Assembly: GCA_964347565.1 (NCBI GenBank)
Contig: CAYFZD010000001.1
Span: 3,019-67,018, forward strand
Source of the DNA: an uncultured Pseudomonadales bacterium
Lineage (GTDB): Bacteria > Patescibacteriota > Microgenomatia > UBA1400 > UBA12108
Length of the DNA stretch: 64,000 nucleotides
Reading direction: 5' to 3'
Shown here one piece after another: positions 14,814 through 62,805 of the stretch. The position numbers and the translations under genes are program-made. The notes beneath the pieces were generated by a model. It ran no database searches and was not told the origin of the DNA. It saw only the letters and a list, made by a program, of their open reading frames with translations. Within the stretch, counting starts at the first letter, position 1. The number at the start of each line of letters is the position of its first letter.

Positions 14814-14814
14814 T

Positions 14815-32090: not shown

Positions 32091-32091
32091 T

Positions 32092-38785: not shown

Positions 38786-39538
38786 ATGACCATAAATTTA
38801 GCCATCAGCCATCAGTCATCATCCATTAAAATAACTAACGTAAGTAAGTTATTTTTCAAGCAGGAGCAGAAAACGTTCAAAGAATTCTTGCCCGCCATCT
38901 TCACGGGCAAGAAAACAAGGGAGTGGTTCTGGGCACTCCAGGATATCAATCTGGAAATCAGGGCAGGGGAGACGCTCGGGATCATGGGACCCAATGGGAG
39001 CGGCAAGTCCACCCTCCTCAAGCTGATCGCTGGCGTCTCCCAGCCCACCAAAGGGACTATCACCGCGTTGGGTAGGGTAGCCCCCCTCATCGAGCTCGCG
39101 GCCGGGTTCCACCCCGAGCTCACCGGGCGCGAGAACGTTTATCTCAATGGCATCATCTTGGGTATGTCGCGCGCAGAGGTTGCGGACAAATTTAAGACCA
39201 TCGTCGATTTTGCCGAGCTTTGGGACTTTATCGACTCGCCGGTCAAGCACTACTCCTCTGGTATGTACCTGCGCCTCGCCTTTTCCGTGGCCATCCATAC
39301 TGACCCAGATATTCTCTTACTCGACGAGATCTTGGCGGTAGGGGATGAGCAGTTCCAGGCCAAATGCTTTGCCAAACTACGATCTCTCCAAAAACAAGGG
39401 AAAACCATCATCTACGTCTCACATGACAGCCAATCGGTCCGTGATTTTTGCACTAGGGCTATTCTGATTACCAAATCTAGGATAATCAAGGACGCCACCC
39501 CAAAAGTTATTTGTGATCTCTACTCTGCGCAGTCATAA
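38786..39538 (+). CDS. wzt: ABC exporter ATP-binding protein (Wzt/TagH-like, short form)
   Basis: Walker A GPNGSGKSTLLK, signature YSSGMYLRLAF and Walker B ILLLDEILAVGD. No C-terminal carbohydrate-binding extension. Confidence 0.85.
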   Translation: MTINLAISHQSSSIKITNVSKLFFKQEQKTFKEFLPAIFTGKKTREWFWALQDINLEIRAGETLGIMGPNGSGKSTLLKLIAGVSQPTKGTITALGRVAPLIELAAGFHPELTGRENVYLNGIILGMSRAEVADKFKTIVDFAELWDFIDSPVKHYSSGMYLRLAFSVAIHTDPDILLLDEILAVGDEQFQAKCFAKLRSLQKQGKTIIYVSHDSQSVRDFCTRAILITKSRIIKDATPKVICDLYSAQS

Positions 39539-40541
39539 GTTTTTCGATTGTTTTAAATATATACATCACTTTCTTGCTAGAGTCCGCGGTATATGCGAGC
39601 AAGTCTCCTCTGATCTGAACGTAATGAGCTTTCATGTATTCCAGCTTATCGTCAAAAGTAGCCAGTTTACGCAAATCTATCGACAACTGCTCGTATCCTA
39701 TGTCTGTACAATAATTTACGTTTTTTGGCTCGTAGGAGAGCGATAGAAAAGGGATCCCCATTTGAGTTGCGAATATGAGTGAATGGAGCCTCATGCCTAC
39801 CAAGTACCTGCTGGCTTTTAGCGCATCTAAGTTTGATTTAGTCGGCACACGACTAAAGTACTTCTTTAGTTCGTCTTGATCTGTTTTACCAAAAGAGCCG
39901 CTATAGAGGACTAGTGGGTAAACTTTATCAAACTTTTCTTTGACCAAACTAGCTAATTTATCCGGGTTCCACTTTGGTAAAGGGTAAAAATACTTAATCC
40001 ACGGCCTCTTCTCATACCAGCGTCCTAGTCTTTCATGCCACAGACTGTGTAATTCCAAGTCCCACCAAAACCAATCTCTCAGATTTAGTGTACAGCTATC
40101 GGTTGTTACCTCAGCACTCTTCTGATAAGGGTACATAAATGTAATATCAGGTCCAACTATAACTTTAAAGTGATCACCAAGCATCAGACTACTCTTACGG
40201 TCTCTGACATAAATAAATTCGGCCTTATTTTTTAGTACCTCCAATCCCTCCTTCATATCATCATTCAGCCCATCAGCCTCTATACTTATCCCAATACAGC
40301 CAAAGGGTTTAGTAATCTTGTTTAAAAAATCGACATACCTGCTAAAGCCCCGAAATATCAACCCGCCCCCCCCAATCAATACAAAATCACAAGAATTCAC
40401 TCTCCTTATCTCTAATATAGCCTGTAAAAACGACTTAAAGCGAATTATTTTGTGCTTGTGGAAATATTTCTTAATACAGTAATACATCCTTTCATCACCA
40501 AGATTATTGTTGCCCGACCATCCAATCAGTGCAATTTTCAT
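39507..40541 (-). CDS. Polysaccharide pyruvyl transferase (CsaB/WcaK family)
   Basis: N-terminus MKIALIGWSGNNNLGDERMYY and overall PS_pyruv_trans-like architecture. AT-rich. Confidence 0.65.
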   Translation of the reverse strand: MKIALIGWSGNNNLGDERMYYCIKKYFHKHKIIRFKSFLQAILEIRRVNSCDFVLIGGGGLIFRGFSRYVDFLNKITKPFGCIGISIEADGLNDDMKEGLEVLKNKAEFIYVRDRKSSLMLGDHFKVIVGPDITFMYPYQKSAEVTTDSCTLNLRDWFWWDLELHSLWHERLGRWYEKRPWIKYFYPLPKWNPDKLASLVKEKFDKVYPLVLYSGSFGKTDQDELKKYFSRVPTKSNLDALKASRYLVGMRLHSLIFATQMGIPFLSLSYEPKNVNYCTDIGYEQLSIDLRKLATFDDKLEYMKAHYVQIRGDLLAYTADSSKKVMYIFKTIEKLMTAQSRDHK

Positions 40542-41785: not shown

Positions 41786-42508
41786 CTACGAATATTTTCG
41801 CTTAATCGCAAAAATCGCCGAAAATGACCTAAGTAATTCCATCAAATTGGCATTCGACTTGCCTTTCTCCCTATCTACAAATTTGAACGGAACTTCTACA
41901 AATCTAAAGCCATGCCGATAAAGTAGATAGAGAGTTTCGGATAATGCGATAAAGCCTTTTTGCTGGATGCGGCTGTGTACGATCAGTTTGACTGCCTCCC
42001 TTGGGTAACAGCGATAGCCATTAGTACAGTCACTAACCGGCACGTGTAAAATAGTACGGATATATGTGTTGGCAAATCTGCTCATGACCTTTCTTCTTAT
42101 TGACCAGTTCATAATTTTGCCGCCCCTGGTGTAGCGAGACGCCACCACAACAGTATTTGGTTCTCTTTTGTCCAAAATCCTAGGCATGTCCGTAGGCTTA
42201 TGGGAAAAATCGGCATCCATCTCAATAAAATACTCTATTTTTGGATTTTTGAGAGCCTCTTCAAATCCCGAGAGGACCGCCCCTCCTCGACCAGATTTTG
42301 ACCTTCTTACAATTAGAGAAACGCGACCATCTTTGTTGGATATGTACTTGCGCACTATCTCCGCGGTACCATCAGGTGAGTTGTCGTCCACAACATAGAT
42401 GTATGCACCCTCCACATTACTGCGTATTTGCTCGATCAAGTCCAGGATATTCTCCTTTTCGTTGTAGGTAGGGATTATTACCCCGATTGGTTCAAGTAAC
42501 TTCTTCAT
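41786..42508 (-). CDS. GT2 glycosyltransferase (dolichyl/polyprenyl-phosphate mannose synthase-like)
   Basis: GVIIPTYNEKENI, YVVDDNSPDGT and EMDADFSH motifs. Confidence 0.8.
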   Translation of the reverse strand: MKKLLEPIGVIIPTYNEKENILDLIEQIRSNVEGAYIYVVDDNSPDGTAEIVRKYISNKDGRVSLIVRRSKSGRGGAVLSGFEEALKNPKIEYFIEMDADFSHKPTDMPRILDKREPNTVVVASRYTRGGKIMNWSIRRKVMSRFANTYIRTILHVPVSDCTNGYRCYPREAVKLIVHSRIQQKGFIALSETLYLLYRHGFRFVEVPFKFVDREKGKSNANLMELLRSFSAIFAIKRKYS

Positions 42509-44705: not shown

Positions 44706-45699
44706 AAATGTCTTTCAAAATATTTTCCCATCGTTTCTCCCAGGTGTGTTCTTTTAGTACTCTGCGGTAACTATTCTCTGCGATCCACTCTTGGTACTGT
44801 GGGTGTAGAAGGCAATATTGTACTGTGCGGATCAAGTCTTCCTCGCTGTGGTACCCCACAACGTCTACTCCATAAGTAAACAACGGGGCCATCTCAGTGT
44901 TAAATGAAGTCACAATACACGTACGACACGCCGCGGCCTCAAACAGTCCAACTTTTACATTATTGTATCCTGCGTAGGTTTGTGAGAATGACAAATATAT
45001 TCTCCCTGAATTAATTGCCCTCGTGTGATCCAGTCCATGGACTTCGTTACTAGATTGATCCCATCCCGAGCCGTATGTTTTAACGCTAAAGTACTCACGG
45101 AGTGCACTAACTATCTCAATCCTCTCCGGCCTAGCATGTCCCACTACCACCACGTCATATTGTTTTGATACTTTTCGTAACGGTTTATGTAGAGACGGAG
45201 AGGCTGCAAACGGCAGATGTCTATACTTGGAACTTTGCGGGTACTGTCTCTTTAGGGAGTGAAGAGAATTGGTATAAAACAAATCAAAATTATCGCCGTA
45301 AATCTGGCCGTTATCTGCAAATACGTCCGGGTCCGACAGTTCTATCCCCACGCATACTACTCTGCGGTTACTCAGCCACTCCTTGGTCTGCTCGGTTATC
45401 GCCATTCCCCCCGCATTGAGTACAACATAGTTTGGTTTGAGTTTGCCAACTAGTTTCACCAGTTTATTGTGATTTATCCACCGAATAGGGTAGGTGTGCC
45501 CTGGTCTAAGCTCCTCGCTATACCAATTCCCTGTGCTATTATCATAGATTTTTGTATCTACCAGCTCAGTGTGTCCTTTGTTCTTTAACTCCTGAGCCAT
45601 CAAATACACGACATCATTCTCTCCCATCCAGTAACTGCCAAGATGTACACCTGTTAAATTCATAAGTATTATCGTAAAATACATTATAGTATGAAACAA
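44689..45699 (-). CDS. CgeB-like glycosyltransferase (Glyco_trans_1_2 type)
   Basis: C-terminal GLFEAAACRTCIVTSF...YHSEEDL...YRRVLKEHTWEKRWENIL is typical of the CgeB/DUF3880 family. Confidence 0.55.
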   Translation of the reverse strand: MFHTIMYFTIILMNLTGVHLGSYWMGENDVVYLMAQELKNKGHTELVDTKIYDNSTGNWYSEELRPGHTYPIRWINHNKLVKLVGKLKPNYVVLNAGGMAITEQTKEWLSNRRVVCVGIELSDPDVFADNGQIYGDNFDLFYTNSLHSLKRQYPQSSKYRHLPFAASPSLHKPLRKVSKQYDVVVVGHARPERIEIVSALREYFSVKTYGSGWDQSSNEVHGLDHTRAINSGRIYLSFSQTYAGYNNVKVGLFEAAACRTCIVTSFNTEMAPLFTYGVDVVGYHSEEDLIRTVQYCLLHPQYQEWIAENSYRRVLKEHTWEKRWENILKDIYEIRS

Positions 45700-47964
45700 G
45701 CCAAAACCTCACCTATTATCCTTGGCTTCGCTTTTACCGACTCCTTGTCATTTAGATTGTGGCAAATCCTCTGCAAGTTCAAACAAATCACGGCCTACGA
45801 CGAATACAGACATATTACCGCCCTAACCAAAAGATATACGCGCGGCACCGACAATTGGATAAAGAAAGTCATCCTCCCGTCCAAGGCTTTTAAGCGTTGG
45901 CTCACTTACTACTCTCTTAAAATTCGCCTAAAAGATAAAATTTTCTTGACCGGAAAAAAATATTTACCCACTGTACTCAAAGTTTTTCTCAAAAAACACG
46001 CTCCTGCCTACTTCCCAGTGCCCATGAAACCGATTCCTCCAAGCATTCAGCACAAGTGGAACGAATGGGTTAACACCCGCTCAAATGCCAGTCTCGACAT
46101 TATCAACTTTGGGGTGATCGCCTACAATTACCGCATCCAGCGTCCACAGCACCTAGCCACAGAAATGACCAAATTGGGCCATCGGGTTTTCTACATCGAA
46201 AATGAGTTTGTCTATACTTCAAGTCACAAATTACCACAACTCACGGTGACCCAGCAAAGTGACAACCTTTTTGTAGTTAAATTATCGTCATCGATTAATT
46301 ACTTTATCTACCGGGATTCAATATCGGAAAAAGATAAAAAAATTCTCCTCTCGTCATTTAAAGTCTTGTTAAGGAAAGCTCGCATTCTCAATCCGGTAGC
46401 CAAGATCGACCACCCGTTCTGGGGATCTCTTGTCAATGATTTAAGCATGCCGGTTATTTACGACGCTATGGACCTTCACGCCGGTTTTAAAGAGACCTCG
46501 GCTTATAATCTGGAAAAAGAACAAACTCTCCTAAAACAATCCGACATTATTCTCTCCAGTTCCGACTACCTTACCAAACAATTTCACAAATTTAAATCTA
46601 AGACCTTATCACTCAAAAACGCCGGCGAGTATTCACACTTCGCGCATAATCAAATACTTAGGAATTCTCCACCTCCGGACTTTGCAGGCCTCAAACACCC
46701 CATCATCGGTTACTACGGAGCCATTGCCGATTGGTTTAACCCGGATCTAATAGAGGGAGTTGCCAAATCAATCCCCGAAGCCAGCATTGTGCTCATTGGT
46801 CACGTTAGCAACGAGAGGCTTTTGACACTGGCCAGTCGATATCCAAACATTCATTTATTAGGAGAGAAGTCATACTCCGACCTTCCCCGCTACCTAGCCA
46901 GCTTCGATGTCTGTCTCATTCCCTTCAAATTGACCAAACTCATCCAGGCTACAAACCCTGTCAAGATCTATGAATATTTTGCCTCTGGCAAACCGGTAGT
47001 GGCCACGTCTATACCGGAACTCATGCCCTACAAGAAAATTATTTACATGGCTGATACCGTCAGCACATATGTTTCTGCTGTCAAACGCGCAATCAAAGAA
47101 AACTCGGCTTTAAAACAAAAGTTACGCATTGCCGTAGCCAAAGCCAATACCTGGGTCCATCGAGCTAAGGTGCTCGAAGATCACCTTTTGCGCACCTTCT
47201 ACCCTAAAGTGAGTGTTATTATTCTAGTTTATAACCACAGTGATTTATCCAAAATCTCCATAGATACCACGCTAGATCGCTCAAAATATCCTAACTTTGA
47301 AGTTTTGGCTGTAGATAACTGCTCCGATCAAGAAACCAGGAAAATGCTTGAGCAGTATCGCGGTCGTAAAAATATCCGGCTAATTTTTAACTCAAAAAAT
47401 TATGGATTTGCCAAAGGTAATAATATTGGGATGGAGCGTGCGCGAGGTGATTATCTTCTCCTACTCAACAACGACGTTCGCGTAACTCCCGGCTGGATTG
47501 AGAGGCTTGTTTTCCATGCCAAATCAAACAATGTAGGGTTAGTTGGACCCGTTACCAATAGTATCGGCAACGAATCAAAGATCAAAATTCGCTACGACTC
47601 TGAAAATCAGAGCGAGATGGAAATGCAGTCCGCAGATTATGTATATGCTCACTGGGGAGAAACTCTAAAACTTCGTAATATCGCAGCCTTTGCTTGGATA
47701 AAGTCTAGGATGGTCTATAACAAAATTGGCGGGCTAGACGATCGTTTTGGCAGAGGACTATTCGAAGACGATGATTACTGTGTGCGCGTAGGTAATGCTA
47801 AATTGGATATTTTGTGTGCCGAAGATGCTTTTGTTCACCACTACGGTGGGGCTAGCACTAACTGGGGTAGTCCGGAATTCAAATTATTATTTAACACCAA
47901 CAAAACCAAATTTGAGACTAAATGGAAAATGAAATGGACTCCACATAAATACCGCAAAGAATAA
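45691..47964 (+). CDS. Multidomain glycosyltransferase: N-terminal unknown domain + GT4-like domain + C-terminal GT2 domain
   Basis: Middle region HPIIGYYGAIADWFN...IYEYFASGKPVVAT (GT4 C-terminal domain). C-terminal region KVSVIILVYNHSDL...LAVDNCSDQ...FEDDDYC (GT2). The start overlaps the divergent cgeB-like start by 9 bp, so the true start is uncertain. Confidence 0.65.
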   Translation: MKQAKTSPIILGFAFTDSLSFRLWQILCKFKQITAYDEYRHITALTKRYTRGTDNWIKKVILPSKAFKRWLTYYSLKIRLKDKIFLTGKKYLPTVLKVFLKKHAPAYFPVPMKPIPPSIQHKWNEWVNTRSNASLDIINFGVIAYNYRIQRPQHLATEMTKLGHRVFYIENEFVYTSSHKLPQLTVTQQSDNLFVVKLSSSINYFIYRDSISEKDKKILLSSFKVLLRKARILNPVAKIDHPFWGSLVNDLSMPVIYDAMDLHAGFKETSAYNLEKEQTLLKQSDIILSSSDYLTKQFHKFKSKTLSLKNAGEYSHFAHNQILRNSPPPDFAGLKHPIIGYYGAIADWFNPDLIEGVAKSIPEASIVLIGHVSNERLLTLASRYPNIHLLGEKSYSDLPRYLASFDVCLIPFKLTKLIQATNPVKIYEYFASGKPVVATSIPELMPYKKIIYMADTVSTYVSAVKRAIKENSALKQKLRIAVAKANTWVHRAKVLEDHLLRTFYPKVSVIILVYNHSDLSKISIDTTLDRSKYPNFEVLAVDNCSDQETRKMLEQYRGRKNIRLIFNSKNYGFAKGNNIGMERARGDYLLLLNNDVRVTPGWIERLVFHAKSNNVGLVGPVTNSIGNESKIKIRYDSENQSEMEMQSADYVYAHWGETLKLRNIAAFAWIKSRMVYNKIGGLDDRFGRGLFEDDDYCVRVGNAKLDILCAEDAFVHHYGGASTNWGSPEFKLLFNTNKTKFETKWKMKWTPHKYRKE

Positions 47965-47965
47965 T

Positions 47966-49033
47966 ATGAAAATAGCACTTATCCTAGGAACCAGACCGGA
48001 AATTATCAAATTCTCGCCGATCATCCGCGAACTACAGAATCGCCAACTGGAATTTTTTATTCTTCATTCTAATCAGCATTACTCTCCCGGTATGGATCAA
48101 CAGTTTTTTGCCGAACTATCCCTCCCGCAACCAAGGTATAACCTAGATGTTCACAATCTTCCCCAAGGTGCGATGGTAGGGCAAATGCTTCTCGGGATTG
48201 AACCAATCCTGATCGATGAAAAGCCAGATTGGGTTTTAGTAGAAGGGGACACTAACACCGTTTTAGCGGGTGCTCTTGCCGCTGCTAAACTAGGTATAAA
48301 GGTTGGGCATGTTGAGGCAGGTTTGCGCAGTTATGATCGTACAATGCCAGAAGAGCTCAATCGGATTGTTGCGGACCATCTCTCTGATGTTCTCTTCTGT
48401 CCCACGCATAACTCCGTCAAAATAGCGCTAGGGGAGGGAATACCCAAAGAAAAAGTCATCTTGACAGGCAACACCATAGTGGACGCCGTGGAGCAAAACC
48501 TTACCCTCGCTAAACAGTCCAAACTAGACGACAAGTACAAAAATCAAAACTATCTGCTCCTCACGATGCATCGCCCCTCCAATGTCGACACAAAGGCTGC
48601 CCTCTCCCAAGCCATTGCCTCCCTAGAGAGCCTCTCAGACGAGCTAAATGTCCCCATTATCTTCCCTGTGCACCCCCGCACAGATAACGCCCTCAAGCGA
48701 TTCCAATTAACTCCCAACCCAGCCAAAGTCAAGATCATTGACCCTGTTGGATATCTAGAAATGTTGCTACTCATGGAAAGTGCTCAGCTGATCATTACCG
48801 ACTCTGGCGGGATCCAAGAAGAGGCCTGTATCCTTCGTGTGCCCTGCATCACCATTCGTGACAATACAGAACGACCCGAAACGGTCGCAGTTGGTGCCAA
48901 CCTCATCGTGGGTACCTCCATTGTAGAAGTCATTACCGGAGCCAAAACCATGCTCGCAAAAACCCGTGACTGGCCCAACCCCTTTGGAGACGGTCATAGT
49001 GCAACAAGAATCGTTAATCAAATAATAGATTGA
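47966..49033 (+). CDS. wecB: UDP-N-acetylglucosamine 2-epimerase (non-hydrolysing)
   Basis: MKIALILGTRPEIIKFSPII, HVEAGLRSYDR and ITDSGGIQEEA blocks. Confidence 0.9.
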   Translation: MKIALILGTRPEIIKFSPIIRELQNRQLEFFILHSNQHYSPGMDQQFFAELSLPQPRYNLDVHNLPQGAMVGQMLLGIEPILIDEKPDWVLVEGDTNTVLAGALAAAKLGIKVGHVEAGLRSYDRTMPEELNRIVADHLSDVLFCPTHNSVKIALGEGIPKEKVILTGNTIVDAVEQNLTLAKQSKLDDKYKNQNYLLLTMHRPSNVDTKAALSQAIASLESLSDELNVPIIFPVHPRTDNALKRFQLTPNPAKVKIIDPVGYLEMLLLMESAQLIITDSGGIQEEACILRVPCITIRDNTERPETVAVGANLIVGTSIVEVITGAKTMLAKTRDWPNPFGDGHSATRIVNQIID

Positions 49034-50556
49034 GTATGAGAAAGTTCTTCTACAGTCAATTTGGTTCCATCGCTGTCATTCTAGGCTCCTGGATTACTCT
49101 CACATACACCCTATATTTTTACCAGATCAATACTCAGCTGGCCGACACTACATTTATCGCGCAAATTTTGCAAAACTTCCGCCACACTCCGATTATGCAA
49201 ACCAGCATGGGCAATTCAATTGTTGAATCAATGGATATTATCTGGGGTAAACCTGCCGATTATGTCTGCACTCTCCCCTTAACTACCCATTTTACCAATA
49301 TGCCCTGGTTCCATTACTATTTCGCACTTTACCTACTCATGCCACTTGCCTGGATAATTAACATCCCGATCTTACTTGCCGGCGTACAAGCAGCCATTTA
49401 TCTATCGGTGCTACTATTCACCTATTATTTTGCAAGGAAACACAATCTCAGCCGGCTCGGCGCCATACTATTACTAGCTTTGGTTGCCCAACATCCTCTC
49501 TGGATAGAAGGTCTCTATGGCCAGTTTTATGTCAATCGCCTTTTTCTGCCGTTTTCTGCTCTATTTATTTGGCTCATAGAGAAAAAGAAAATTAATTACT
49601 ACGCTCTTGCACTTGCCGGCATCATGGCAATCAGTACCAATGAGGTATATGGCATCGCCATAGCCACGATTATTGTTTCGTACTTTTGGATCAACAAAGT
49701 AGTCGATCGCAAATTATGCTTGCTCGCTGGAGCATTCATCATCTACAGTTTTGTCTCTATGTCACTCATCCAGCGGAATCTAGGGCTCACTCTCCCCCAA
49801 ACGGATTTTTTGAGTAAAACGGCCGGAGGGGGGATTGGCACCTTAATTTCAAGACTAACGACAGATCTACTCGATCAAAAAACTCTAATTTTCTTGGGAG
49901 TAAATCTTGTTTCAATAGGTGTCTTAGCGATTTTGTCAGTTCGCTCAATTCTTCCCTTTTTCCTAATTCTCCTCCCCAACCTATTCATTAATATCGGAGG
50001 TGCAGAGAAAACAGGATGGTCAACCCACTATCATGCCTCGTATTTCGTGCCGCTCATCTGGTTAAGCATCTTGGGGATTTCACGTCTTAACAAACATCGA
50101 CGCCTTCAACTCACACTACTCGTTGGATTCATCATCCTGACGGCTTGGATTAACCCCTATACCGGCAAGTTACGCGATACTCCGCGATACAGTTTCCGTG
50201 ACATTTATCAAAAATCCCGCACCTATCCTTCACTTAGTCCAGTTTATCTCAACTTTCGTGAACGTCTTGAAATGGCGGTGGGAGAGAGACAATCAGTGAG
50301 CCTCTTAGAGCCGCTGGCTTATCATCTCTACTCACATCAAACATACTATTATCCTCACAACATCGAAAGCGTAGATAGCGTGATTCTCCGCTATGACCCA
50401 AGTGAGGTTGGTGATGAGCGGTATTCGTCGATTAGTTACGGTAAACAATTTGATCCTCTCATGGATGCTTGTATCCTTGACCGCATGAAAAAAGATGGAT
50501 ACAAACTGGACAACCCTACTATCGTAGATGACTGGGCTGTAATCAAACGTAAGTAG
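49030..50556 (+). CDS. Polytopic membrane protein (508 aa), paralog of 52282-53808
   Basis: Shared N-terminal loop DTTFIAQILQNFRHTPIMQT...YVCTLPLTTHFTNMPWFHYYFALYLL and identical length to the paralog. ATGA overlap with wecB. Confidence 0.55.
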   Translation: MSMRKFFYSQFGSIAVILGSWITLTYTLYFYQINTQLADTTFIAQILQNFRHTPIMQTSMGNSIVESMDIIWGKPADYVCTLPLTTHFTNMPWFHYYFALYLLMPLAWIINIPILLAGVQAAIYLSVLLFTYYFARKHNLSRLGAILLLALVAQHPLWIEGLYGQFYVNRLFLPFSALFIWLIEKKKINYYALALAGIMAISTNEVYGIAIATIIVSYFWINKVVDRKLCLLAGAFIIYSFVSMSLIQRNLGLTLPQTDFLSKTAGGGIGTLISRLTTDLLDQKTLIFLGVNLVSIGVLAILSVRSILPFFLILLPNLFINIGGAEKTGWSTHYHASYFVPLIWLSILGISRLNKHRRLQLTLLVGFIILTAWINPYTGKLRDTPRYSFRDIYQKSRTYPSLSPVYLNFRERLEMAVGERQSVSLLEPLAYHLYSHQTYYYPHNIESVDSVILRYDPSEVGDERYSSISYGKQFDPLMDACILDRMKKDGYKLDNPTIVDDWAVIKRK

Positions 50557-50576
50557 TTATTATTTCTCCGTAGCTA

Positions 50577-51347
50577 CTAAATCCGCTGACCACCATTCAC
50601 ATTTAACGTATGTCCCGTAATAAAGCTAGAAAGATCAGAAACTAAAAAGTAGACGGCATTAGCCACATCTTGTGGCGTGCCAAGTCGCTTTAATGGGATT
50701 TGCTTAGCCACATTGTTCTGTCTATCCTTACTCCAGCTCTCGGTCATACCGGTAGGGTAAATCGGTCCAGGTGCTACTACATTCACTCGTATACCCCGCT
50801 CAGACAACTGGCTGGCGTACAATTTCGAAAGCTGGATCACCCCAGCCTTAGCCACGGCATACCCAATTTTTATGGGAAGTTTAGTGGGGAGGGGTGAAGT
50901 AAGACCTTGCCCATTCAGAGAACCCATGTTGACTATCGATCCACCGTTTCTAATCAAAGGTGATAAGAGTCGACAAGCAAGTTGAGTGCTTAGTAAGTTT
51001 AGCTCAAGATCTAGGGTAAACGCCTTATCAAATATATCACCGGGTAAGGTCGCATGGCTACCTCCGGCATTATTCACTAAAATATCTATTGATCCGACAT
51101 CTTTTCTAACTTCTTTCTCTAAACGCTTTATATCCTGACCCTTAGTGATGTCGGACACATACCACCACACCCTTACTTTATATTTAGAGACAAATACTTT
51201 CACAATATCTCTTAATTTCAAATCATTGCGAGCAATCAGAACGAGGTCACAACCCTCTGCTGCTAGTTTCTCTGCGATCGCCAAACCAATACCTGAGCTT
51301 GCACCCGTCACCAACGCAACCTTACCATTAAGCGTCTGTATCTTCAT
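50577..51347 (-). CDS. SDR-family oxidoreductase (short-chain dehydrogenase/reductase)
   Basis: KVALVTGASSGIGLAIA Rossmann motif and classical SDR length (256 aa). Confidence 0.85.
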   Translation of the reverse strand: MKIQTLNGKVALVTGASSGIGLAIAEKLAAEGCDLVLIARNDLKLRDIVKVFVSKYKVRVWWYVSDITKGQDIKRLEKEVRKDVGSIDILVNNAGGSHATLPGDIFDKAFTLDLELNLLSTQLACRLLSPLIRNGGSIVNMGSLNGQGLTSPLPTKLPIKIGYAVAKAGVIQLSKLYASQLSERGIRVNVVAPGPIYPTGMTESWSKDRQNNVAKQIPLKRLGTPQDVANAVYFLVSDLSSFITGHTLNVNGGQRI

Positions 51348-52285
51348 TTTTTTACCCCTACTATTTTATCGATCACATAAACTGGTCGGTTCTTTACCTC
51401 CTCAACCAGCACTTGGATATATTTACCCAGTATTCCCATGCCAAACAGTAATACATTTCCCAGGAAAAACATCGCCAGCAATAAAGTCGGCAGTGTCTCG
51501 TATGGTATTCGCCAAAACGAATGATATCCAACATAAATTACAACCAATGTCACTGACAAGCAAACAAGGAACAAACTCGCATACATCAATAAGTCTAGTA
51601 ATAGGTAAGAAAACCCATAAATTCCTCTCTCTGCGTACTTAAAGTAAGAAATCCAATTATAGGCACTGGACCCATATAATCGTTGTTTTCTATGGTATTT
51701 CACAAACGCAACTTTAAATCCAATCCAGACACGCAAGCCGCGGAAAAAACGAAATTTTTCCGGTAAAGTTCTCAAGGCATCAAGCGCTTTGCGATCGAGC
51801 AAAGAAAACTCGGATGTATTCACAGGAATATCTAAATCTGAAATTCTTTTAAAAATATAGTAAAAAGCTCGCCTTAAAAGCGTCGTAAAAATATCTTCTT
51901 GAGTATTGAGGTATCGCCCTGCTACTATATTGTAGCCCTGTTCCCATTTCTTAATAAATTTTAAGATCAACTCAGGGGGATCTTGTAGATCACATGGGAG
52001 TATCACTATCGCTTCACCAACTGCATTGTGCATCAGGGCAGCAACAGAAGCCTCAAATCCAAAGTTGCGAGACAGAAACACTCCACGGGCAGTCTTGTCT
52101 TTTTTTATGACATTAAGGATCTTTCTGCGTGTTTCATCCGTGCTACCATTATCGACAAATAAGAACTGAAAAATATAATCAGGAGCTTTCTTTAAAATTG
52201 CCTGAGTTATATTATAAGTGCGCTCTACATTTTCCTCCTCATTAAAGCACGGAATTCCAATGGTTACTATCTTTTTAGCTTTCAT
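51344..52285 (-). CDS. GT2 polyprenol-phosphate glycosyltransferase (GtrB/ArnC-like) with C-terminal TM helices
   Basis: VTIGIPCFNEEENV, FVDNGSTDETR and LPCDLQDPP motifs, plus two C-terminal hydrophobic helices. ATGA overlap with the SDR. Confidence 0.8.
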   Translation of the reverse strand: MKAKKIVTIGIPCFNEEENVERTYNITQAILKKAPDYIFQFLFVDNGSTDETRRKILNVIKKDKTARGVFLSRNFGFEASVAALMHNAVGEAIVILPCDLQDPPELILKFIKKWEQGYNIVAGRYLNTQEDIFTTLLRRAFYYIFKRISDLDIPVNTSEFSLLDRKALDALRTLPEKFRFFRGLRVWIGFKVAFVKYHRKQRLYGSSAYNWISYFKYAERGIYGFSYLLLDLLMYASLFLVCLSVTLVVIYVGYHSFWRIPYETLPTLLLAMFFLGNVLLFGMGILGKYIQVLVEEVKNRPVYVIDKIVGVKK

Positions 52286-53808
52286 AGTGCTGTTTTCCTT
52301 TTAATAACCGCCCATTCATCGACAACTATTATATTGTCAAAGTCAAAACCACCTCGCTTCATCCGCTCAATAATACAAAGATCAAGATCAGGATCTTGCT
52401 GACTATAATTAATCGAATGAAAACGCCGATCAATAGTCTCCTTATCATTATATCTCAAAACAACTGTACTGACGCTATCGATCCCCATGGGATAATAGTA
52501 CATTTTGTGATCGTGTAAATTGTACGAAATTGCCTCAGGCACACTCAAAGTTGCCTCATCACCCACTGCCTCACGCAAACGCCTGCGGAAATCGAGCGAT
52601 AACGCTGATTTTTGATACTGATAGCGAACACCTTGTATTAGTTTTTTTGCCGCAATAGTTGGTCTCTCATTTATCTTTAAAGTCGCTGGGTTTATCCACA
52701 TCGTAAACATAATCGCTAAACCAATTAGCGCGGCCTGAATTCTAGGTCTATTATTCAACTTACTTAGTCCGATCAGACTAATCCAAATTAAAGGGACAAA
52801 GTATCCAATATGATAATGTGTTGACCATCCAATTTTCTCAGCACCTCCTACCGTAACAAGCACATTTGGCCCAAGCAAAAGCATCATTGGAAAGATGAGT
52901 CGAACATTGATCAGTGCAAATACCCCCATAGCCAAAAAATTAACTATCAGGAATATTTGTGTCCCCGGTTCTGCCAACCGCAACCAGACACTCCTTAAAA
53001 GACTACCCAAGCCATGTCCAAAAAGACTACCCAGCGAACTAGTTTGTGTTGAACCAAGAGGGAAATGTCTCTGAATATAAGCAGTTGAAATTGCCCCAAA
53101 TCCAAGCAAAGCAATCGCTAAGATAGATATCCTTCGATCAAATTTTTTATAAATCCACATATAACTACATAACATAATAAAAATTGTAATCCCATATATT
53201 TCATTCGTGCTAGCTGCCAATATACTAGCTAAAAACACAAGGGCATAATTAATTTTTGACTTATCTAGCAGCAGGATCAAGATGGCACTAAAAGGCAAGA
53301 AAAATCGATTAAAATATAGCTGACCTGTCAATCCTTGATCCCACAGCGGGTGCTGCATAACCAAAAGTACAAAAAAGGCAGACAAAGCAATGCTAAATTT
53401 CTTTTGACGAGCCAATATATAGGCAAAGACGAGAATAGAAGTATAAATACCAGCGTGGAGTACGGCAATCATTAGGGGAATATCCATCATCCGAGCGAGC
53501 GGGATCAAGAGGTAGGCAATAAAATAGTGGTGACCCCATGGAGTATCCGTGAATTTTGACTCTAAATCCATCGAACAAACTTCTGCTGCTGGCTTATACC
53601 ACACGTGGTCAATTGATTCTGTAGTAGAGGTGTAGTATGTAGTCTGCATTGTTAGCGTCTGCTTGAAGTTGTGTAGCACCTGCGCTACAAATGCCGTATC
53701 ACCAACCTGATTTTTAATATTCAAGAAAAAGAGGAAATAACTAAGAACGCCCCATAAAAAAAATGCAATCAAGGCAACAACAGTTTTCTCCTGAAAAACT
53801 TTCTTCAT
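52282..53808 (-). CDS. Polytopic membrane protein (508 aa), paralog of 49030-50556; GtrC-position partner of upstream GT2
   Basis: N-terminal loop DTAFVAQVLHNFKQTLTMQT...EVCSMDLESKFTDTPWGHHYFIAYLL. ATGA overlaps on both sides. Confidence 0.55.
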   Translation of the reverse strand: MKKVFQEKTVVALIAFFLWGVLSYFLFFLNIKNQVGDTAFVAQVLHNFKQTLTMQTTYYTSTTESIDHVWYKPAAEVCSMDLESKFTDTPWGHHYFIAYLLIPLARMMDIPLMIAVLHAGIYTSILVFAYILARQKKFSIALSAFFVLLVMQHPLWDQGLTGQLYFNRFFLPFSAILILLLDKSKINYALVFLASILAASTNEIYGITIFIMLCSYMWIYKKFDRRISILAIALLGFGAISTAYIQRHFPLGSTQTSSLGSLFGHGLGSLLRSVWLRLAEPGTQIFLIVNFLAMGVFALINVRLIFPMMLLLGPNVLVTVGGAEKIGWSTHYHIGYFVPLIWISLIGLSKLNNRPRIQAALIGLAIMFTMWINPATLKINERPTIAAKKLIQGVRYQYQKSALSLDFRRRLREAVGDEATLSVPEAISYNLHDHKMYYYPMGIDSVSTVVLRYNDKETIDRRFHSINYSQQDPDLDLCIIERMKRGGFDFDNIIVVDEWAVIKRKTAL

Positions 53809-54776
53809 GATTCAAGCATTTTTTTGTACCAACGATATATCGATGGTAGTTCTTTTTTTAGATTACTCTTTGGAGTCCATTTAATCCTGTCGTTGATCTT
53901 GGTAAAGTCCAGTGACTGGTAAGGAATTTCATTGGCTGCGGAACTCAACATTTTGACAGAAATTTTTCTTCGAAATACTTCCTCAGCAATCTTTATCACT
54001 TCTTTCACATTAAGGGTTTCTTTTGAACCAAAATTAAAAGCTTCACCTCGCACCTGATCAAAGTTATTCATAATTTGAAGATATCCCCTAGCCACGTCCT
54101 TGACATAAAGATAATCACGTACGTAGGTGCCATCACTACGTAACTCAAGTGGTTGTTTATGCACAAGAGACTTCATAATTCCGGGGATAATACGCGAAAG
54201 ATTCAAGTCGCCTTCTCCATAAATATTACCAAAACGAGTTGTTACAACTGGTAAGCCATAGGTTTGCACATACGAAGTGCAGATCAAATCAGCTGCAGAC
54301 TTTGATACTTCATACGGGTGATCACCCTGTAGTCGGTCAGTCTCCTTATATTTCCCCTCATTCAGCTTACCGTAAGCCTTATCCGACGAAGCGACTATGA
54401 TGCCTCTTACCGTTTTTACCTGTCTACATGCTTCGAGGATTGTTGCAGTCCCCATAATATTTGTATCCAATGTATACATTGGATCAACTAACGCTACCTC
54501 AACAATTGGTTGGGCTGCTAAATGCAAAACGTATTCTATATTAAATCTTGTAATAAGATTTAATATCCCTTCGTAGTTTCGTACATCAACTTGTGCTGTA
54601 GTTACTTTTTGGTCTAAATGTCGGCTAAAAAAGTAGGATTTAGGTTCATTCATAATCGTTGTAGCCACTACCTGCGCGCCTGTCATTACCAATTGGTCCA
54701 CTACATGTGATCCAACAAATCCGGTGCCGCCAGTAACCAACACTCTTTTATCGTTTATCATTACCAAACCTTCCAC
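53805..54776 (-). CDS. rfbG: CDP-glucose 4,6-dehydratase
   Basis: KRVLVTGGTGFVGSHV. HLAAQPIVEVALVDPMYTLDTNIMGT, SDKAYG and HPYEVSKSAADL align with Yersinia/Salmonella DdhB as recalled from memory. Adjacent to rfbF. Confidence 0.7.
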   Translation of the reverse strand: MEGLVMINDKRVLVTGGTGFVGSHVVDQLVMTGAQVVATTIMNEPKSYFFSRHLDQKVTTAQVDVRNYEGILNLITRFNIEYVLHLAAQPIVEVALVDPMYTLDTNIMGTATILEACRQVKTVRGIIVASSDKAYGKLNEGKYKETDRLQGDHPYEVSKSAADLICTSYVQTYGLPVVTTRFGNIYGEGDLNLSRIIPGIMKSLVHKQPLELRSDGTYVRDYLYVKDVARGYLQIMNNFDQVRGEAFNFGSKETLNVKEVIKIAEEVFRRKISVKMLSSAANEIPYQSLDFTKINDRIKWTPKSNLKKELPSIYRWYKKMLES

Positions 54777-55537
54777 GGGGCAATCCCGCTATTCCAAATT
54801 CTATTTAACTCCTCAACTTCTTTAATTGTATCCATGCAAAACCAAAAACCCGTATGTTTATACATCGACAATTCGTTTCTTTTCGTAAGCCTACGTAAAG
54901 CAGGGTGTTCGGTTTCACCGGCACGTAAGTAGGTAAATATTCGCCTATCAAATACCATAAAACCTCCGTTAACCCAATCATTGAGACGTGGTTTTTCGTT
55001 GAAGTTATTGATATGGTTATTTTTTGTTACAGTAATGGCGCCATATTTTGACCGTGGGTGAATACCTGTAAGAGTACCGATTGTTTTCTGTCTAGCATGA
55101 AATTTAAGTAATCTAGAAATATTTACATCACATACCCCATCGCCATATGTCAACATAAAATAAGGGTCTTCTTTGGGAATGTACTGTCTACACTTGAGAA
55201 TGCGCTCACCCGGCTCGGTTTCTAGACCAGTATCTACAAAAGTAATCTTAAAATCATCAACTTCTGAACGATTCTCGAGATGATATTCGACCTGATGCGT
55301 TTTGGACTCTAAAGTAAAATCAGAAGTAAATGCTTTCTGGTTTAAGAAAAAATCTTTGATGTAATCAGCCTTGTAACCAAGTGCAAGTATAAATTCATTA
55401 AATCCGTGCTTACTATAGGTCTTCATGATATGCCAAAGAATTGGCTTGTTGCCCACATACACCATCGGTTTTGGCTTAAACTCAGTTTCTTCTTTAAGCC
55501 GAGTTCCTGCTCCTCCGCACAGAATTATCACTTTCAT
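54761..55537 (-). CDS. rfbF: Glucose-1-phosphate cytidylyltransferase
   Basis: MKVIILCGGAGTRLKEETEFKPKPMV...GNKPILWHIM is the canonical RfbF N-terminus. 258 aa. Confidence 0.85.
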   Translation of the reverse strand: MKVIILCGGAGTRLKEETEFKPKPMVYVGNKPILWHIMKTYSKHGFNEFILALGYKADYIKDFFLNQKAFTSDFTLESKTHQVEYHLENRSEVDDFKITFVDTGLETEPGERILKCRQYIPKEDPYFMLTYGDGVCDVNISRLLKFHARQKTIGTLTGIHPRSKYGAITVTKNNHINNFNEKPRLNDWVNGGFMVFDRRIFTYLRAGETEHPALRRLTKRNELSMYKHTGFWFCMDTIKEVEELNRIWNSGIAPWKVW

Positions 55538-55580: not shown

Positions 55581-56906
55581 ATGATAATTATGACACGAAT
55601 ACATCAGGGTAGCAATTGGCTGTATAATTACACATCGATGAACAAAAAATCTGCATTTATTGCCGGAGAAACATACGTTCCGGTTTCTGGTAAGGTCTTC
55701 GATCGGGCTGAAATCGATAATGCCATTGAAGCCGCGGAGGACGGATGGTGGACAGAGGGCAGGTGGGCCAAAAAGTTTGAAGGTCAGTTTGGTCAGTACC
55801 TGGGGGCAAATCACGTCACTTTGGTCAACTCAGGCTCTAGTGCCAATCTCAATGCCCTCGCCTCACTTACTTCAAAGATTTGGGGCGACAGCCAGCTCAA
55901 ACCAGGGGATGAGTACATTACTTGTGCAGTAGGGTTTCCTACGACAGTTAACCCAGGAGTTCAGCATGGACTGGTGCCGGTATTTGTTGATGCTGAGCTC
56001 GACACTTTTAACATCGACGCTGCCAAGATAGAGGCGGCCATAACCCCCAAAACTAAACTCCTCATGTTCGCACATACTCTCGGCAAGCCCTACAACCTGG
56101 AGATTATTATGGCTCTCCGCAAAAAGTACAAATTATGGGTGATAGAGGATTGCTGTGATGCCTTGGGCTCAACTTACGATAAGAAATTGGTAGGAACATT
56201 TGGTGATATTGCCACCTTCTCGTTTTATCCAGCTCATCAAATTACCATGGGTGAGGGGGGTGCTATAGTAACCAACAATCCTCTCCTACATAGAGAAATT
56301 CGCAAGTTTCGTGACTGGGGCCGTGACTGCTATTGTGATCCCGGTAAAGACAATACTTGCGGACGTAGATTCAAGTGGAAACTAGGCGAGCTACCTTACG
56401 GCTACGATCACAAGTATATTTACAGTCAAATCGGGTACAACCTCAAACTTACCGATTTTGGCCCGGCCATCGGGGTAGCTCAACTGGCCAAACTCCCCAA
56501 GTTTATCAAAAGACGAAAAGTGAACTATCAGACTCTCTATAAATTTTTCTCGCAATACCCCGATTATTTCCATCTTTTAACTACCGGTGACAAAGAAGAT
56601 CCTTGTTGGTTTGGTTTCCCGCTCCTGGTCAAAGAAACCGCCCCCTTTACGCGTAATGATTTAACCGAGTACCTTGAACTACATAAAATTGGTACCAGAA
56701 ATATCTTTTCAGGAAATTTGCTGAGGCATCCCGCCTACACTGATATAAAGAAAAAACGCGTAATGGGCAAAATGACGGTCGCTGACCGAGTAATGAATCA
56801 GGCTTGTTGGTTAGGAGTCTTTCCCGGCATCCAGGCACCGCAAATGAGATACGTTCTGAAAACACTTAGTGAATTTATAAAACAAATACCAACCCTTACC
56901 GCTTAA
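55581..56906 (+). CDS. rfbH: CDP-6-deoxy-D-xylo-4-hexulose-3-dehydrase (E1; PMP-dependent DegT-family)
   Basis: Near-colinear to RfbH/DdhC as recalled: TLVNSGSSANL, ITCAVGFPTTVNP, IEDCCDALG, FSFYPAHQITMGEGG (His replaces the aminotransferase Lys), FRDWGRDCYCDPGKDNTCG. The true start may be Met 55590. Confidence 0.85.
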   Translation: MIIMTRIHQGSNWLYNYTSMNKKSAFIAGETYVPVSGKVFDRAEIDNAIEAAEDGWWTEGRWAKKFEGQFGQYLGANHVTLVNSGSSANLNALASLTSKIWGDSQLKPGDEYITCAVGFPTTVNPGVQHGLVPVFVDAELDTFNIDAAKIEAAITPKTKLLMFAHTLGKPYNLEIIMALRKKYKLWVIEDCCDALGSTYDKKLVGTFGDIATFSFYPAHQITMGEGGAIVTNNPLLHREIRKFRDWGRDCYCDPGKDNTCGRRFKWKLGELPYGYDHKYIYSQIGYNLKLTDFGPAIGVAQLAKLPKFIKRRKVNYQTLYKFFSQYPDYFHLLTTGDKEDPCWFGFPLLVKETAPFTRNDLTEYLELHKIGTRNIFSGNLLRHPAYTDIKKKRVMGKMTVADRVMNQACWLGVFPGIQAPQMRYVLKTLSEFIKQIPTLTA

Positions 56907-62090: not shown

Positions 62091-62100
62091 AATATAGTGA

Positions 62101-62805
62101 TTATTCTACAAATTTGTATTTTAACAAGGTGTAAATCGCATGTAAGCCATCGCGCCAATTGATTTTTTTACCTTCGGCTACTTTTCTTCCTCGATAGGAT
62201 ATCTCCACTTCATAAATAGGTATATTTTTCTTCGCTATTTTTGCTGTAATTTCTGGGCAAAAATCGAACTTTTTACATACCAGGGAAACAGAATCAAGTA
62301 AGCTGGCGTCAAACACCTTATAACCAGTTGCTTCATCAGTAATGTTTGTCGTATACAGTATGTTAGTTAGCCAGTTGATAAATTGTCCGCCAACATAAAA
62401 TACCCAGCCTCCATGATGCATCTTGGAGTGAGTCAACATTCTCGACCCATAAACAACCCTGGCTTTACCTTGTAATATAGGTGCAAGTAGTTTGGGATAG
62501 TCGCTCGGACTATATTCTAGGTCAGCATCCTGAACCAAGATGATGTCGCCCGTTGACATCTCAAAACCATGTCGTAGTGCCGCCCCCTTACCTTTGTTAT
62601 ATGGCTGGTAATAGACTCTTATGTTCTTGTTTCTCAATCTCCTTAAAATATCACGAGTTTTGTCAGTCGACCCATCATCCACCACAATAATCTCTTTGTG
62701 AAGTCCAAGAGTATTAGACTGTATCACTCTTTTGATAATTTTCGCTATTGTCTGCTCTTCGTTGTAGACAGGGATGATGATAGAAACAGTTTTATATTTT
62801 TCCAT
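62101..62805 (-). CDS. GT2 glycosyltransferase (DPM1-like)
   Basis: VSIIIPVYNEEQTI, IVVDDGSTDKT and VQDADLEYSP motifs. Confidence 0.8.
   Translation of the reverse strand: MEKYKTVSIIIPVYNEEQTIAKIIKRVIQSNTLGLHKEIIVVDDGSTDKTRDILRRLRNKNIRVYYQPYNKGKGAALRHGFEMSTGDIILVQDADLEYSPSDYPKLLAPILQGKARVVYGSRMLTHSKMHHGGWVFYVGGQFINWLTNILYTTNITDEATGYKVFDASLLDSVSLVCKKFDFCPEITAKIAKKNIPIYEVEISYRGRKVAEGKKINWRDGLHAIYTLLKYKFVE

Follow-up and report, generated by a model that had tools for sequence, protein, structure and literature searches.

Ancient paralogues with a predicted GT-C fold meet at the junction of two convergent glycan operons in an uncultured bacterium

The window analyzed here, a 64,000-nucleotide stretch of contig CAYFZD010000001.1 from an uncultured bacterium, contains two genes for related polytopic membrane proteins, copy A on the minus strand and copy B on the plus strand (Table 1). 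Our overall explanation, which we consider probable, is that both proteins are GT-C transferases and old paralogues lying in two convergent operons, copy A in a dideoxyhexose cassette and copy B in an operon for a polymer backbone. According to this proposal, RfbF and a 4,6-dehydratase would make cytidine diphosphate (CDP)-4-keto-6-deoxyglucose, RfbH (E1) would take off the 3-hydroxyl group, a short-chain dehydrogenase/reductase (SDR) would reduce the 4-keto group, and a GtrB-like glycosyltransferase of family GT2 would place the sugar on polyprenyl phosphate. After flipping, copy A would take the sugar from its lipid carrier and attach it to a glycopolymer at the surface. Copy B would add a different lipid-linked sugar to the same polymer, which would contain N-acetylmannosamine (ManNAc) and be exported by an ABC transporter. 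Below, L-numbers denote related loci on other contigs and P-numbers denote member proteins of the family formed by A, B and their relatives.

An original prediction, made from the sequence alone, had described the two genes as an inverted pair of paralogues of exactly the same length at 49030-50556 (+) and 52282-53808 (-). Both open reading frames (ORFs) are present, with 508 codons each in the mechanical ORF list. Because the proteins align from end to end (BLASTP, 228 of 506 residues or 45% identical, 65% positives, one 1-residue gap, E = 1e-158), they are true homologues beyond any shared hydrophobicity, and the predicted paralogy holds. The proposed N-terminal loop signature is found as GDTAFVAQVLHNF in copy A and as ADTTFIAQILQNF in copy B. 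A second motif, given as P-W-x-H-Y-Y-F, also exists but had been worded wrongly; since copy A has PWGHHYF and copy B has PWFHYYF, it reads P-W-x-H-x-Y-F. The identical length is true of the mechanical ORFs, but it is a coincidence of ORF calling. The copy B ORF opens at a TTG (49030) that overlaps the wecB stop, and an ATG lies two codons on at 49036. Starting there yields MRKFF..., in agreement with orthologues that begin MKK or MRK, and the public database gene call for the exact copy B sequence is 506 amino acids long. Judging from these comparisons, the ATG is most likely the true start and the TTG probably is not one. The equal length of A and B is thus accidental, an artefact of the TTG start; their alignment is shifted by 2 residues at the N terminus, and A is 3 residues longer at the C terminus.

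Structure prediction assigns both proteins to the GT-C fold. AlphaFold2 models made with the family alignment reached a pLDDT of 87.3 and a pTM of 0.89 for copy A, and 89.0 and 0.89 for copy B. In Foldseek searches of the PDB, the best nine matches of copy A are all GT-C enzymes (DPY19, ArnT, STT3, AftA and PMT; TM-scores 0.26-0.46), with the ArnT structures 5F15 and 5EZM among the best, and ALG6 follows at rank 13. The top 15 matches of copy B are also all GT-C proteins (STT3, DPY19, ArnT, ALG6 and PMT), with TM-scores up to 0.50. For the two models together, the best matches, which also include ALG3, have probabilities of 0.84-1.0 and TM-scores of 0.24-0.50, and below them the scores drop sharply to noise.

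The suggestion that profile searches would lead to DUF2079 or GT-C proved right, as a relationship to DUF2079 and a GT-C fold, though below the formal threshold. Copy B scores 16.2 bits (E = 0.0056) against Pfam DUF2079 (PF09852), whose gathering threshold is 28.2 bits; copy A has no Pfam match, and neither copy is matched in NCBIfam. An hhalign comparison of the family profile with a canonical DUF2079 protein (487 amino acids, from L005), which itself scores 243 bits to PF09852, gives a probability of 96.6% and an E-value of 5.5e-10 over 395 columns and aligns the aspartate of a GD(T/L) motif after the first transmembrane helix (TM1). A DUF2079 match with E ≤ 0.01 is obtained for 11 of 25 subfamily members, and the lowest E-value is 8e-10. 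The A/B family therefore reads, from sequence comparison, as a small, divergent, outlying branch of DUF2079 that is a non-member by the Pfam threshold. Searched with the family profile, 1.84 billion cluster representatives yielded no more than 591 proteins with E ≤ 1e-3, of which 305 reach E ≤ 1e-30, and a scan of GTDB representatives found no close relative, the best match (41%) being in a Roizmanbacteria metagenome-assembled genome (MAG). The family representative P0064 (744 amino acids) carries a C-terminal SGNH/GDSL hydrolase domain at residues ~515-728, a domain type typical of extracytoplasmic O-acyl modification of glycans. It is the sole informative domain fusion among the longer family members; P0049 and P0051 have N-terminal extensions without a Pfam match.

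We deduced the membrane topology from the model helices and the positive-inside rule, with no dedicated topology predictor. The models suggest 11 transmembrane helices with the N terminus inside and the C terminus outside, and an extracytoplasmic C-terminal alpha/beta domain of ~135 residues. Short loops rich in lysine and arginine (136-139, 182-187, 221-226 and 350-356) would be cytoplasmic; the N terminus is rich in lysine, and loop 33-95 is net acidic. D37 lies 3-4 residues past TM1 and is conserved in 90% or more of the members, both in a set of 25 and in one of 35. H93, H153-P-W, GQ, S200-x-N-E203 and GGAEKxGWSTHYH are invariant or nearly so, and in the deduced topology these motifs and D37 are all extracytoplasmic. 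Such an 11-helix layout with outward-facing conserved motifs would be the arrangement of GT-C enzymes and, by analogy with them, D37 is a candidate for the catalytic acidic residue of the first extracytoplasmic loop. Because every invariant residue is retained in both copies, both look functional. We consider it quite probable that A and B are extracytoplasmic GT-C transferases that use a polyprenyl-phosphate-linked sugar.

Copy A belongs to an operon that runs on the minus strand from 55537 to 50577 in the order rfbF, 4,6-dehydratase, copy A, GT2, SDR, with rfbH divergent. As predicted originally, it is translationally coupled to the GT2 gene through a 4-nt, ATGA-type overlap (52282-52285); the same type joins GT2 to the SDR and the dehydratase to copy A. 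The GT2 matches the GtrB structure 5EKP (sll0501) over residues 7-311 (E = 2.5e-56) and ArnC at E = 1e-22. Its best NCBIfam match is PgfS (213 bits, sub-cutoff), and it scores 100 bits to the ArnC equivalog, whose cutoff is 529. Because of the 5EKP, ArnC and PgfS matches and two C-terminal hydrophobic helices (222-258 and 263-290), we place it in the class of polyprenyl-phosphate glycosyltransferases. The enzyme is thus GtrB-like with two C-terminal transmembrane helices, as had been noted, and copy A occupies the GtrC/ArnT position beside it.

The remaining genes of the cassette point to a CDP-sugar pathway. RfbH aligns with Yersinia E1 (3BCX, E = 2.8e-147), including a histidine ('YPAHQIT' vs 'YPAHHIT') that presumably replaces the pyridoxal phosphate lysine and the C..CxC..x7..C cysteines ('CYCDPGKDNTC' vs 'CYCAPGCDNTC') that we take to be ligands of a [2Fe-2S] cluster. 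Its start may lie at M20, its cluster mates being 417-422 amino acids long. The rfbF product is 96% identical to its L035 orthologue. The dehydratase contains an 'SSDKAYG' motif, and its start is likely the ATG at 54761, which would give a protein of 318 amino acids like the L035 orthologue; with that start, the apparent 16-nt overlap with rfbF vanishes. The SDR has generic best matches in the PDB (gluconate 5-dehydrogenase and FabG), and we infer that it is the 4-ketoreductase of the pathway.

The cassette is conserved as a unit. The series rfbF-dehydratase-A-GT2-(rfbH)-SDR, with its start/stop overlaps, is kept in L002/3, L035/36/39, L037, L040 and L041, and the SDR accompanies it in L002, L035-L037, L040 and L041. 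The rfbH gene lies inside the operon in L002/3 and L041 and is divergent, as in the window, in L035-L037 and L040. The GtrB-like GT2 is the sole cytoplasmic glycosyltransferase that the cassette encodes. Of the 53 non-redundant family loci that have 8 kb or more of flanking sequence, 29 encode a GtrB-like GT2 no farther than 5 kb away, and the number is 37 when DPMS-like enzymes are counted too. CDP-pathway genes, scored by at least 40% identity for rfbF or at least 45% for rfbH, also stand beside distant family members, in 14 non-redundant loci that include a Patescibacteria MAG (L007). A Leptospira sp. MAG (L017, JAWXAQ010000027.1, 1679-13704) encodes RfbF, RfbG, RfbH, a 287-amino-acid extended SDR, a 230-amino-acid GT2 and a DUF2079 protein (533 amino acids). 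Its operon continues with a GtrB-like GT2, another DUF2079 protein (544 amino acids), an epimerase/dehydratase and a DegT aminotransferase. Here, independently of the window, two DUF2079 genes are again found together with a CDP-dideoxyhexose pathway.

Because the cassette recurs as a unit, it suggests a lipid-linked 3,6-dideoxyhexose donor. From this conserved context we put the chance that copy A uses a CDP-pathway-derived 6-deoxy or 3,6-dideoxyhexose at somewhat less than even. A more specific proposal is an undescribed route in which the GtrB-like GT2, as the first CDP-sugar-dependent enzyme of its class, loads a 3,6-dideoxy or 6-deoxy-4-keto hexose that a DUF2079-related GT-C protein installs outside; this we regard as tentative and, in all its parts, rather unlikely. 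Possibly the classical SDR would then reduce the 4-keto group at the lipid-linked stage, by analogy with DprE2. The searched literature contains no link of dideoxyhexoses with GtrB or GT-C enzymes.

Several points weigh against transferase activity or against the CDP-sugar donor. TM-scores to solved GT-C structures are modest (mostly 0.40-0.50), and the family profile finds nothing among PDB sequences, even at an E-value of 10. DUF2079 is absent from the papers in the searched literature, and no member is characterised. RfbF and the dehydratase both score under their NCBIfam equivalog cutoffs (Table 1), and the cassette reductase is a classical SDR, not of the extended RfbJ/RfbS type. E1 needs an E3 reductase (RfbI/DdhD). 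In the window ORFs of 150 amino acids or more that were scanned with Pfam or NCBIfam, no E3 gene (RfbI/DdhD/AscD, with FNR-like or 2Fe-2S ferredoxin domains) turned up, and an RfbI/DdhD-type gene is also missing from the flanks of the related cassettes; E3 could be encoded elsewhere in the genome. No flippase gene (GtrA, MATE/SMR) lies in the cassette or within 45.7-62.8 kb; the only GtrA domain of the window is fused to another GT2 (4078-5292), and a Wzx-like gene lies at 14806-16284. Finally, to our knowledge the characterised enzymes of the GtrB/ArnC/DPMS type all use sugars linked to uridine diphosphate (UDP) or guanosine diphosphate, and none uses CDP-sugars.

This last point favors another reading, in which the GT2 makes ordinary undecaprenyl-phosphate (Und-P)-linked glucose (Glc) or N-acetylglucosamine (GlcNAc) from a UDP-sugar and the CDP-sugar genes feed a cytoplasmic Leloir glycosyltransferase elsewhere in the island. 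The nearest solved relative of the GT2 is the GtrB of 5EKP, many other GT2 and GT4 genes of the island could take a CDP-sugar, and for most distant family members the neighbourhood includes a GtrB-like gene but none of the CDP pathway. However, the cassette has been transferred whole into different flanks (L002/L041 vs the window, L035 and L037) with no other glycosyltransferase inside. Its rfbF, dehydratase, copy A, GT2 and SDR genes are joined by start/stop overlaps, and Patescibacteria (L007), Leptospira (L017) and further metagenomic loci show the association independently. We therefore judge a UDP-sugar donor to be improbable, at about one chance in five, and retain the CDP-derived deoxyhexose as the working candidate for copy A.

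It is very unlikely that A and B belong to another kind of polytopic envelope protein (polymerase, ligase, flippase or scaffold, for example) and have no more than a GT-C-like bundle in common with the transferases. The uncharacterised state of DUF2079 and the modest TM-scores would allow it, and in a cassette without a flippase gene a membrane protein could serve as one. Nevertheless, the top structural matches are all transferases that depend on lipid-phosphate sugars, an acidic residue is conserved after TM1 together with extracytoplasmic histidine and glutamate motifs, and the genes are linked to those of polyprenyl-phosphate GT2 enzymes. The SGNH/GDSL fusion of P0064 also speaks for glycan-modifying transferases, the reading that we prefer.

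Known systems offer partial parallels to a GT-C transferase fed by a dedicated GT2. In the Gtr system of Shigella and Salmonella (the flippase GtrA, the Und-P-Glc synthase GtrB and the GT-C protein GtrC), a GtrB homologue is likewise coupled to a polytopic GT-C-fold protein, and, in the manner of a serotype-converting cassette, the accessory module enters and leaves a glycan locus. Our cassette differs in that it has no GtrA, its GT-C protein is related to DUF2079 rather than to GtrC, and its operon holds its own CDP-sugar pathway, an indication that a deoxy sugar and not glucose is transferred. In addition, the window locus is chromosomal in an uncultured organism and not prophage-borne. The Arn pathway (ArnA/B, ArnC, ArnE/F and ArnT) shares a dehydratase with a DegT-fold enzyme, an ArnC-like GT2 and an ArnT-like fold. 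Unlike it, the cassette has a GT2 that is not an ArnC equivalog, a DegT-fold enzyme that is a 3-dehydrase (RfbH) and not an aminotransferase, and CDP instead of UDP; the acceptor is probably a polymer and not lipid A.

The three-component systems that add pentofuranoses in Citrobacter youngae O1/O2 rely on auxiliary epimerases and on GT136, a new family of GT-C enzymes (Kelly et al. 2024, PMC11127046). As in these systems and in mycobacterial synthesis of decaprenylphosphoryl arabinose (DprE1/DprE2 with Emb/Aft), a dedicated lipid-linked donor would be built by enzymes encoded next to a new type of GT-C protein, and the sugar is diversified by auxiliary oxidoreductases; DprE2 is a classical SDR like that of the cassette. 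The GT2 of the cassette would, however, make the donor from a nucleotide sugar, whereas the donor of those systems is derived from phosphoribosyl pyrophosphate by a phosphoribosyltransferase, and the sugar would be a (di)deoxyhexose and not a pentofuranose. Moreover, the GT-C family is another one, no MATE/SMR flippase gene lies near the cassette, and no CBM domain was detected. In Firmicutes, CsbB/YfhO, GtlA/GtlB (teichoic acid) and PgfS/PgfM (protein) also pair a GtrB-like GT2 with a GT-C protein that decorates an exported cell-wall polymer, and the window backbone genes resemble those for secondary cell-wall or teichuronic-type polymers. There the GT-C protein is of the YfhO type and not DUF2079-like, UDP-GlcNAc or UDP-Glc is used, and the operon contains no sugar pathway. 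The CDP-3,6-dideoxyhexose pathway of Salmonella and Yersinia (RfbF, RfbG, RfbH/E1, RfbI/E3 and RfbJ/RfbS) has its counterpart in the clustered RfbF-like, RfbG-like and bona fide RfbH proteins. The window differs by having no E3 and by a final reductase of the classical rather than the extended SDR type. In those organisms a Leloir glycosyltransferase adds the sugar in the cytoplasm to an undecaprenyl-pyrophosphate-linked repeat, whereas the only glycosyltransferases of the cassette are the polyprenyl-phosphate GT2 and the GT-C protein.

Copies A and B are ancient paralogues from two old clades. In a neighbour-joining tree, P0002-P0011 cluster with copy A, and P0015, P0016, P0018 and P0019 with copy B. 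Orthologues of copy A in L035/36/39, L037 and L040 are 78-81% identical to it, and those of copy B in L035, L040 and L004 are 70-73% identical. The ratio of nonsynonymous (dN) to synonymous (dS) substitutions between the two copies, which had been proposed as a check, is uninformative because dS is saturated (NG86 undefined; dN 0.54); among copy A orthologues dN/dS is about 0.10-0.15. At the DNA level, A and B share a single 71-nt stretch of 72% similarity over the most conserved peptide motif. With no more than this, recent duplication is excluded, and gene conversion between the two copies was ruled out on the same grounds. GC content at third codon positions (GC3) is 0.35-0.37 in rfbF, the dehydratase, copy A and GT2, compared to 0.44-0.51 in the flanking copy B, wecB and downstream backbone genes (0.37 in copy A vs 0.465 in copy B). 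The cassette core (51344-55537) is compositionally foreign.

The two copies also occur independently. The convergent pair is the same in L035/36/39 and L040, which come from groundwater metagenomes, but it is not a fixed pair. In L037 the A cassette is present with wecB directly next to it and B is missing. Conversely, L004 has B and the same flanks, and its A cassette is replaced by genes for a methyltransferase, a canonical DUF2079 protein and a flavin adenine dinucleotide (FAD) oxidoreductase. L038 has a B-type gene without A and, at that spot, a different module of GT2, methyltransferase and DUF2079 genes. A-type cassettes without B within 10 kb were found in L037, L002/3 and L041. From this comparison of L035/36/39, L040, L037, L004 and L038, we conclude that the site is a hot spot for the exchange of accessory modules, bordered by two conserved backbone blocks, GT4-GT2/wecB on one side and GT2_234-MT-p628-p219-M586 on the other. 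The A cassette is self-contained and horizontally mobile.

Heterodimerising pairs of paralogous GT-C proteins are known, and A and B might form such an obligate pair (like Pmt1-Pmt2 or EmbA-EmbB) that acts on one donor from one GT2; the Pmt1-Pmt2 structure 6P25 is among the fold matches, and the convergent arrangement is conserved in L035/36/39 and L040. This is highly improbable, given the cassettes and B-type genes (L004, L038) that lack the other copy, the location of the two genes in different operons, and the full set of invariant residues in both, so that neither resembles a degenerate partner. Least credible of all is the reading of the original prediction, in which a 'lipid-sugar synthase + membrane transferase' unit was recently duplicated locally in inverted orientation and its copies diverged in place: the paralogues do lie inverted 1.7 kb apart with apparently equal ORF lengths, but the locus holds one GtrB-like GT2 and one SDR with the GT-C gene alone doubled, the family HMM (hidden Markov model) finds A and B and no third copy in the window, closer orthologues exist elsewhere in separate clades (79% for A and 73% for B, vs 45% between them), each copy occurs alone, GC3 differs, and the equal length stems from the TTG start. 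Rather than by duplication in place, the pair arose where two convergent operons of different origin meet at a variable spot.

A divergence of the two copies in sugar or acceptor specificity, the other part of that prediction, is plausible. Of the 14 differences that are fixed between the A and B clades, seven lie in the 62 residues of the first extracytoplasmic loop, a clustering in the sequences that would fit distinct donor or acceptor specificities.

Copy B closes an operon that begins with a two-domain GT4+GT2 glycosyltransferase of 757 amino acids. As had been stated, wecB is its immediate upstream neighbour, an order also seen in L004, L035 and L040. The 757-amino-acid protein resembles TuaH and TuaG in NCBIfam, is conserved together with wecB in L004, L005, L008, L035, L037 and L038, and is a probable cytoplasmic backbone polymerase. 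On the question of whether copy B has a GT2 partner of its own, the answer is negative, with no GtrB-like GT2 adjacent; Pfam and NCBIfam scans found no E3, flippase or second GtrB-like GT2 beside it. Two other GT2 enzymes of the island have no transmembrane helices, one PpgS-like and one DPMS/AglJ-like (Table 1). L004, which has B and no A cassette, encodes a counterpart of the second that is 72% identical, and it has a 240-amino-acid GT2 at the position syntenic to 41786-42508, a match by position and size only. The donor of copy B is probably made by one of these two enzymes.

The acceptor may be a ManNAc-containing polymer of the secondary cell-wall or teichuronic type, as suggested by WecB, the TuaG/TuaH-like polymerase, a CsaB-like pyruvyltransferase, methyltransferases and an ABC-2 transporter. 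The CsaB-like gene hints that the backbone is pyruvylated.

If our explanation is right, DUF2079-type proteins would receive their first functional assignment, as extracytoplasmic glycosyltransferases. The lipid-linked donors available for decorating glycans after export would then extend to CDP-pathway deoxyhexoses. The more specific CDP-sugar route proposed above would, in addition, establish a new functional GT-C family and show that dideoxyhexose epitopes can be added after polymer export. CDP-pathway deoxyhexoses are immunodominant in the O antigens of Salmonella and Yersinia, where they are known only as cytoplasmic additions. This would extend the three-component paradigm and would not be a new principle. 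The locus also illustrates the diversity of surface glycans in uncultured (groundwater-type) bacteria, in which cassettes of donor pathway, GT2 and GT-C genes are swapped at a fixed hot spot.

Table 1. Window positions of copies A and B and of the associated genes
Feature	Position	Strand	Remarks
Copy A	52282..53808	-	508-aa GT-C-fold membrane protein, DUF2079-related subfamily, clade A ('PWGHHYF')
Copy B	49036..50556	+	506-aa paralogue, clade B ('PWFHYYF'), last gene of GT4-GT2/wecB operon
rfbF-like glucose-1-phosphate cytidylyltransferase	54761..55537	-	First operon gene; NCBIfam G1P_cyt_trans 276.5 bits, cutoff 300.25, full length
NDP-hexose 4,6-dehydratase, closest to CDP-glucose 4,6-dehydratase (RfbG-like)	53805..54776	-	NCBIfam CDP_4_6_dhtase 201.7 bits, cutoff 278.45
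GtrB/ArnC/PgfS-type GT2, 313 aa	51344..52285	-	Predicted polyprenyl-phosphate glycosyltransferase; coupled to A and SDR
Classical FabG-like SDR, 256 aa	50577..51347	-	Last minus-operon gene; Pfam adh_short_C2 185 bits
RfbH/E1, CDP-6-deoxy-D-xylo-4-hexulose 3-dehydrase	55581..56906	+	Divergent from rfbF; NCBIfam RfbH 621 bits, above cutoff of 423
Convergent intergenic gap, 20 bp	50557..50576	.	Between B stop and SDR stop, junction of the two operons
GT4+GT2 two-domain glycosyltransferase, 757 aa (TuaH/TuaG-like)	45691..47964	+	First plus-operon gene; Pfam Glycos_transf_1, Glycos_transf_2
WecB, non-hydrolysing UDP-GlcNAc 2-epimerase	47966..49033	+	NCBIfam wecB 391 bits, cutoff 210
240-aa GT2 without transmembrane helices, PpgS-like (polyprenyl-phospho-GalNAc synthase)	41786..42508	-	NCBIfam PpgS 68 bits, sub-cutoff
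234-aa GT2 without transmembrane helices, DPMS/AglJ-like	62101..62805	-	PDB DPMS 5MLZ E 1.6e-20; NCBIfam AglJ 125 bits, sub-cutoff
CsaB-like polysaccharide pyruvyltransferase	39507..40541	-	Adjoins ABC-2 transporter (37.6-39.5 kb) and methyltransferases

Scans of 45-58 kb for promoters and terminators gave counts equal to those of shuffled controls, and a simple scan found no terminator-like hairpin in the gap between the two operons. No tRNA or Rfam feature was found in the window. In L035, a 204-amino-acid protein without a family match is encoded directly downstream of rfbH in the same orientation. Elsewhere, a protein of ~665 amino acids without a Pfam match is encoded directly upstream of family members (L038 8007-10004, L005 7967-9967 and L002 6149-8170). 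These three proteins are mutually 34-40% identical, are usually preceded by a methyltransferase gene and have no homologue in the window.

The second backbone block corresponds to a module at 56896-62805 (-) that encodes GT2_234 (the DPMS/AglJ-like GT2), a 309-amino-acid methyltransferase, a 628-amino-acid fusion of an epimerase/dehydratase to a GFO/IDH/MocA oxidoreductase, a 219-amino-acid protein without a family match, and a polytopic membrane protein of 586 amino acids without a Pfam or NCBIfam match. It recurs beside family members in L004, L005, L008, L014, L015 and L035-L038, and it looks like another unit of lipid-sugar synthase, tailoring enzymes and membrane transferase.

The whole window is one long glycan island, and further genes of the GT-C type are numerous in 1-38000. 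They include PMT_2 genes (7066-8646, 10523-12022, 18693-20243 and 29713-31320), PTPS_related genes (12026-13480 and, fused to a methyltransferase, 32014-34422) and a GT87 gene (23821-25083), in addition to the GT2+GtrA-domain fusion and the Wzx-like flippase gene mentioned above. At 27858-29720 (+), a 620-amino-acid protein joins an N-terminal GT2 with a PIG-V/Mannosyl_trans2 (GT-C) membrane domain and so naturally unites in one polypeptide the two enzyme types that copy A and its GT2 represent as separate genes.

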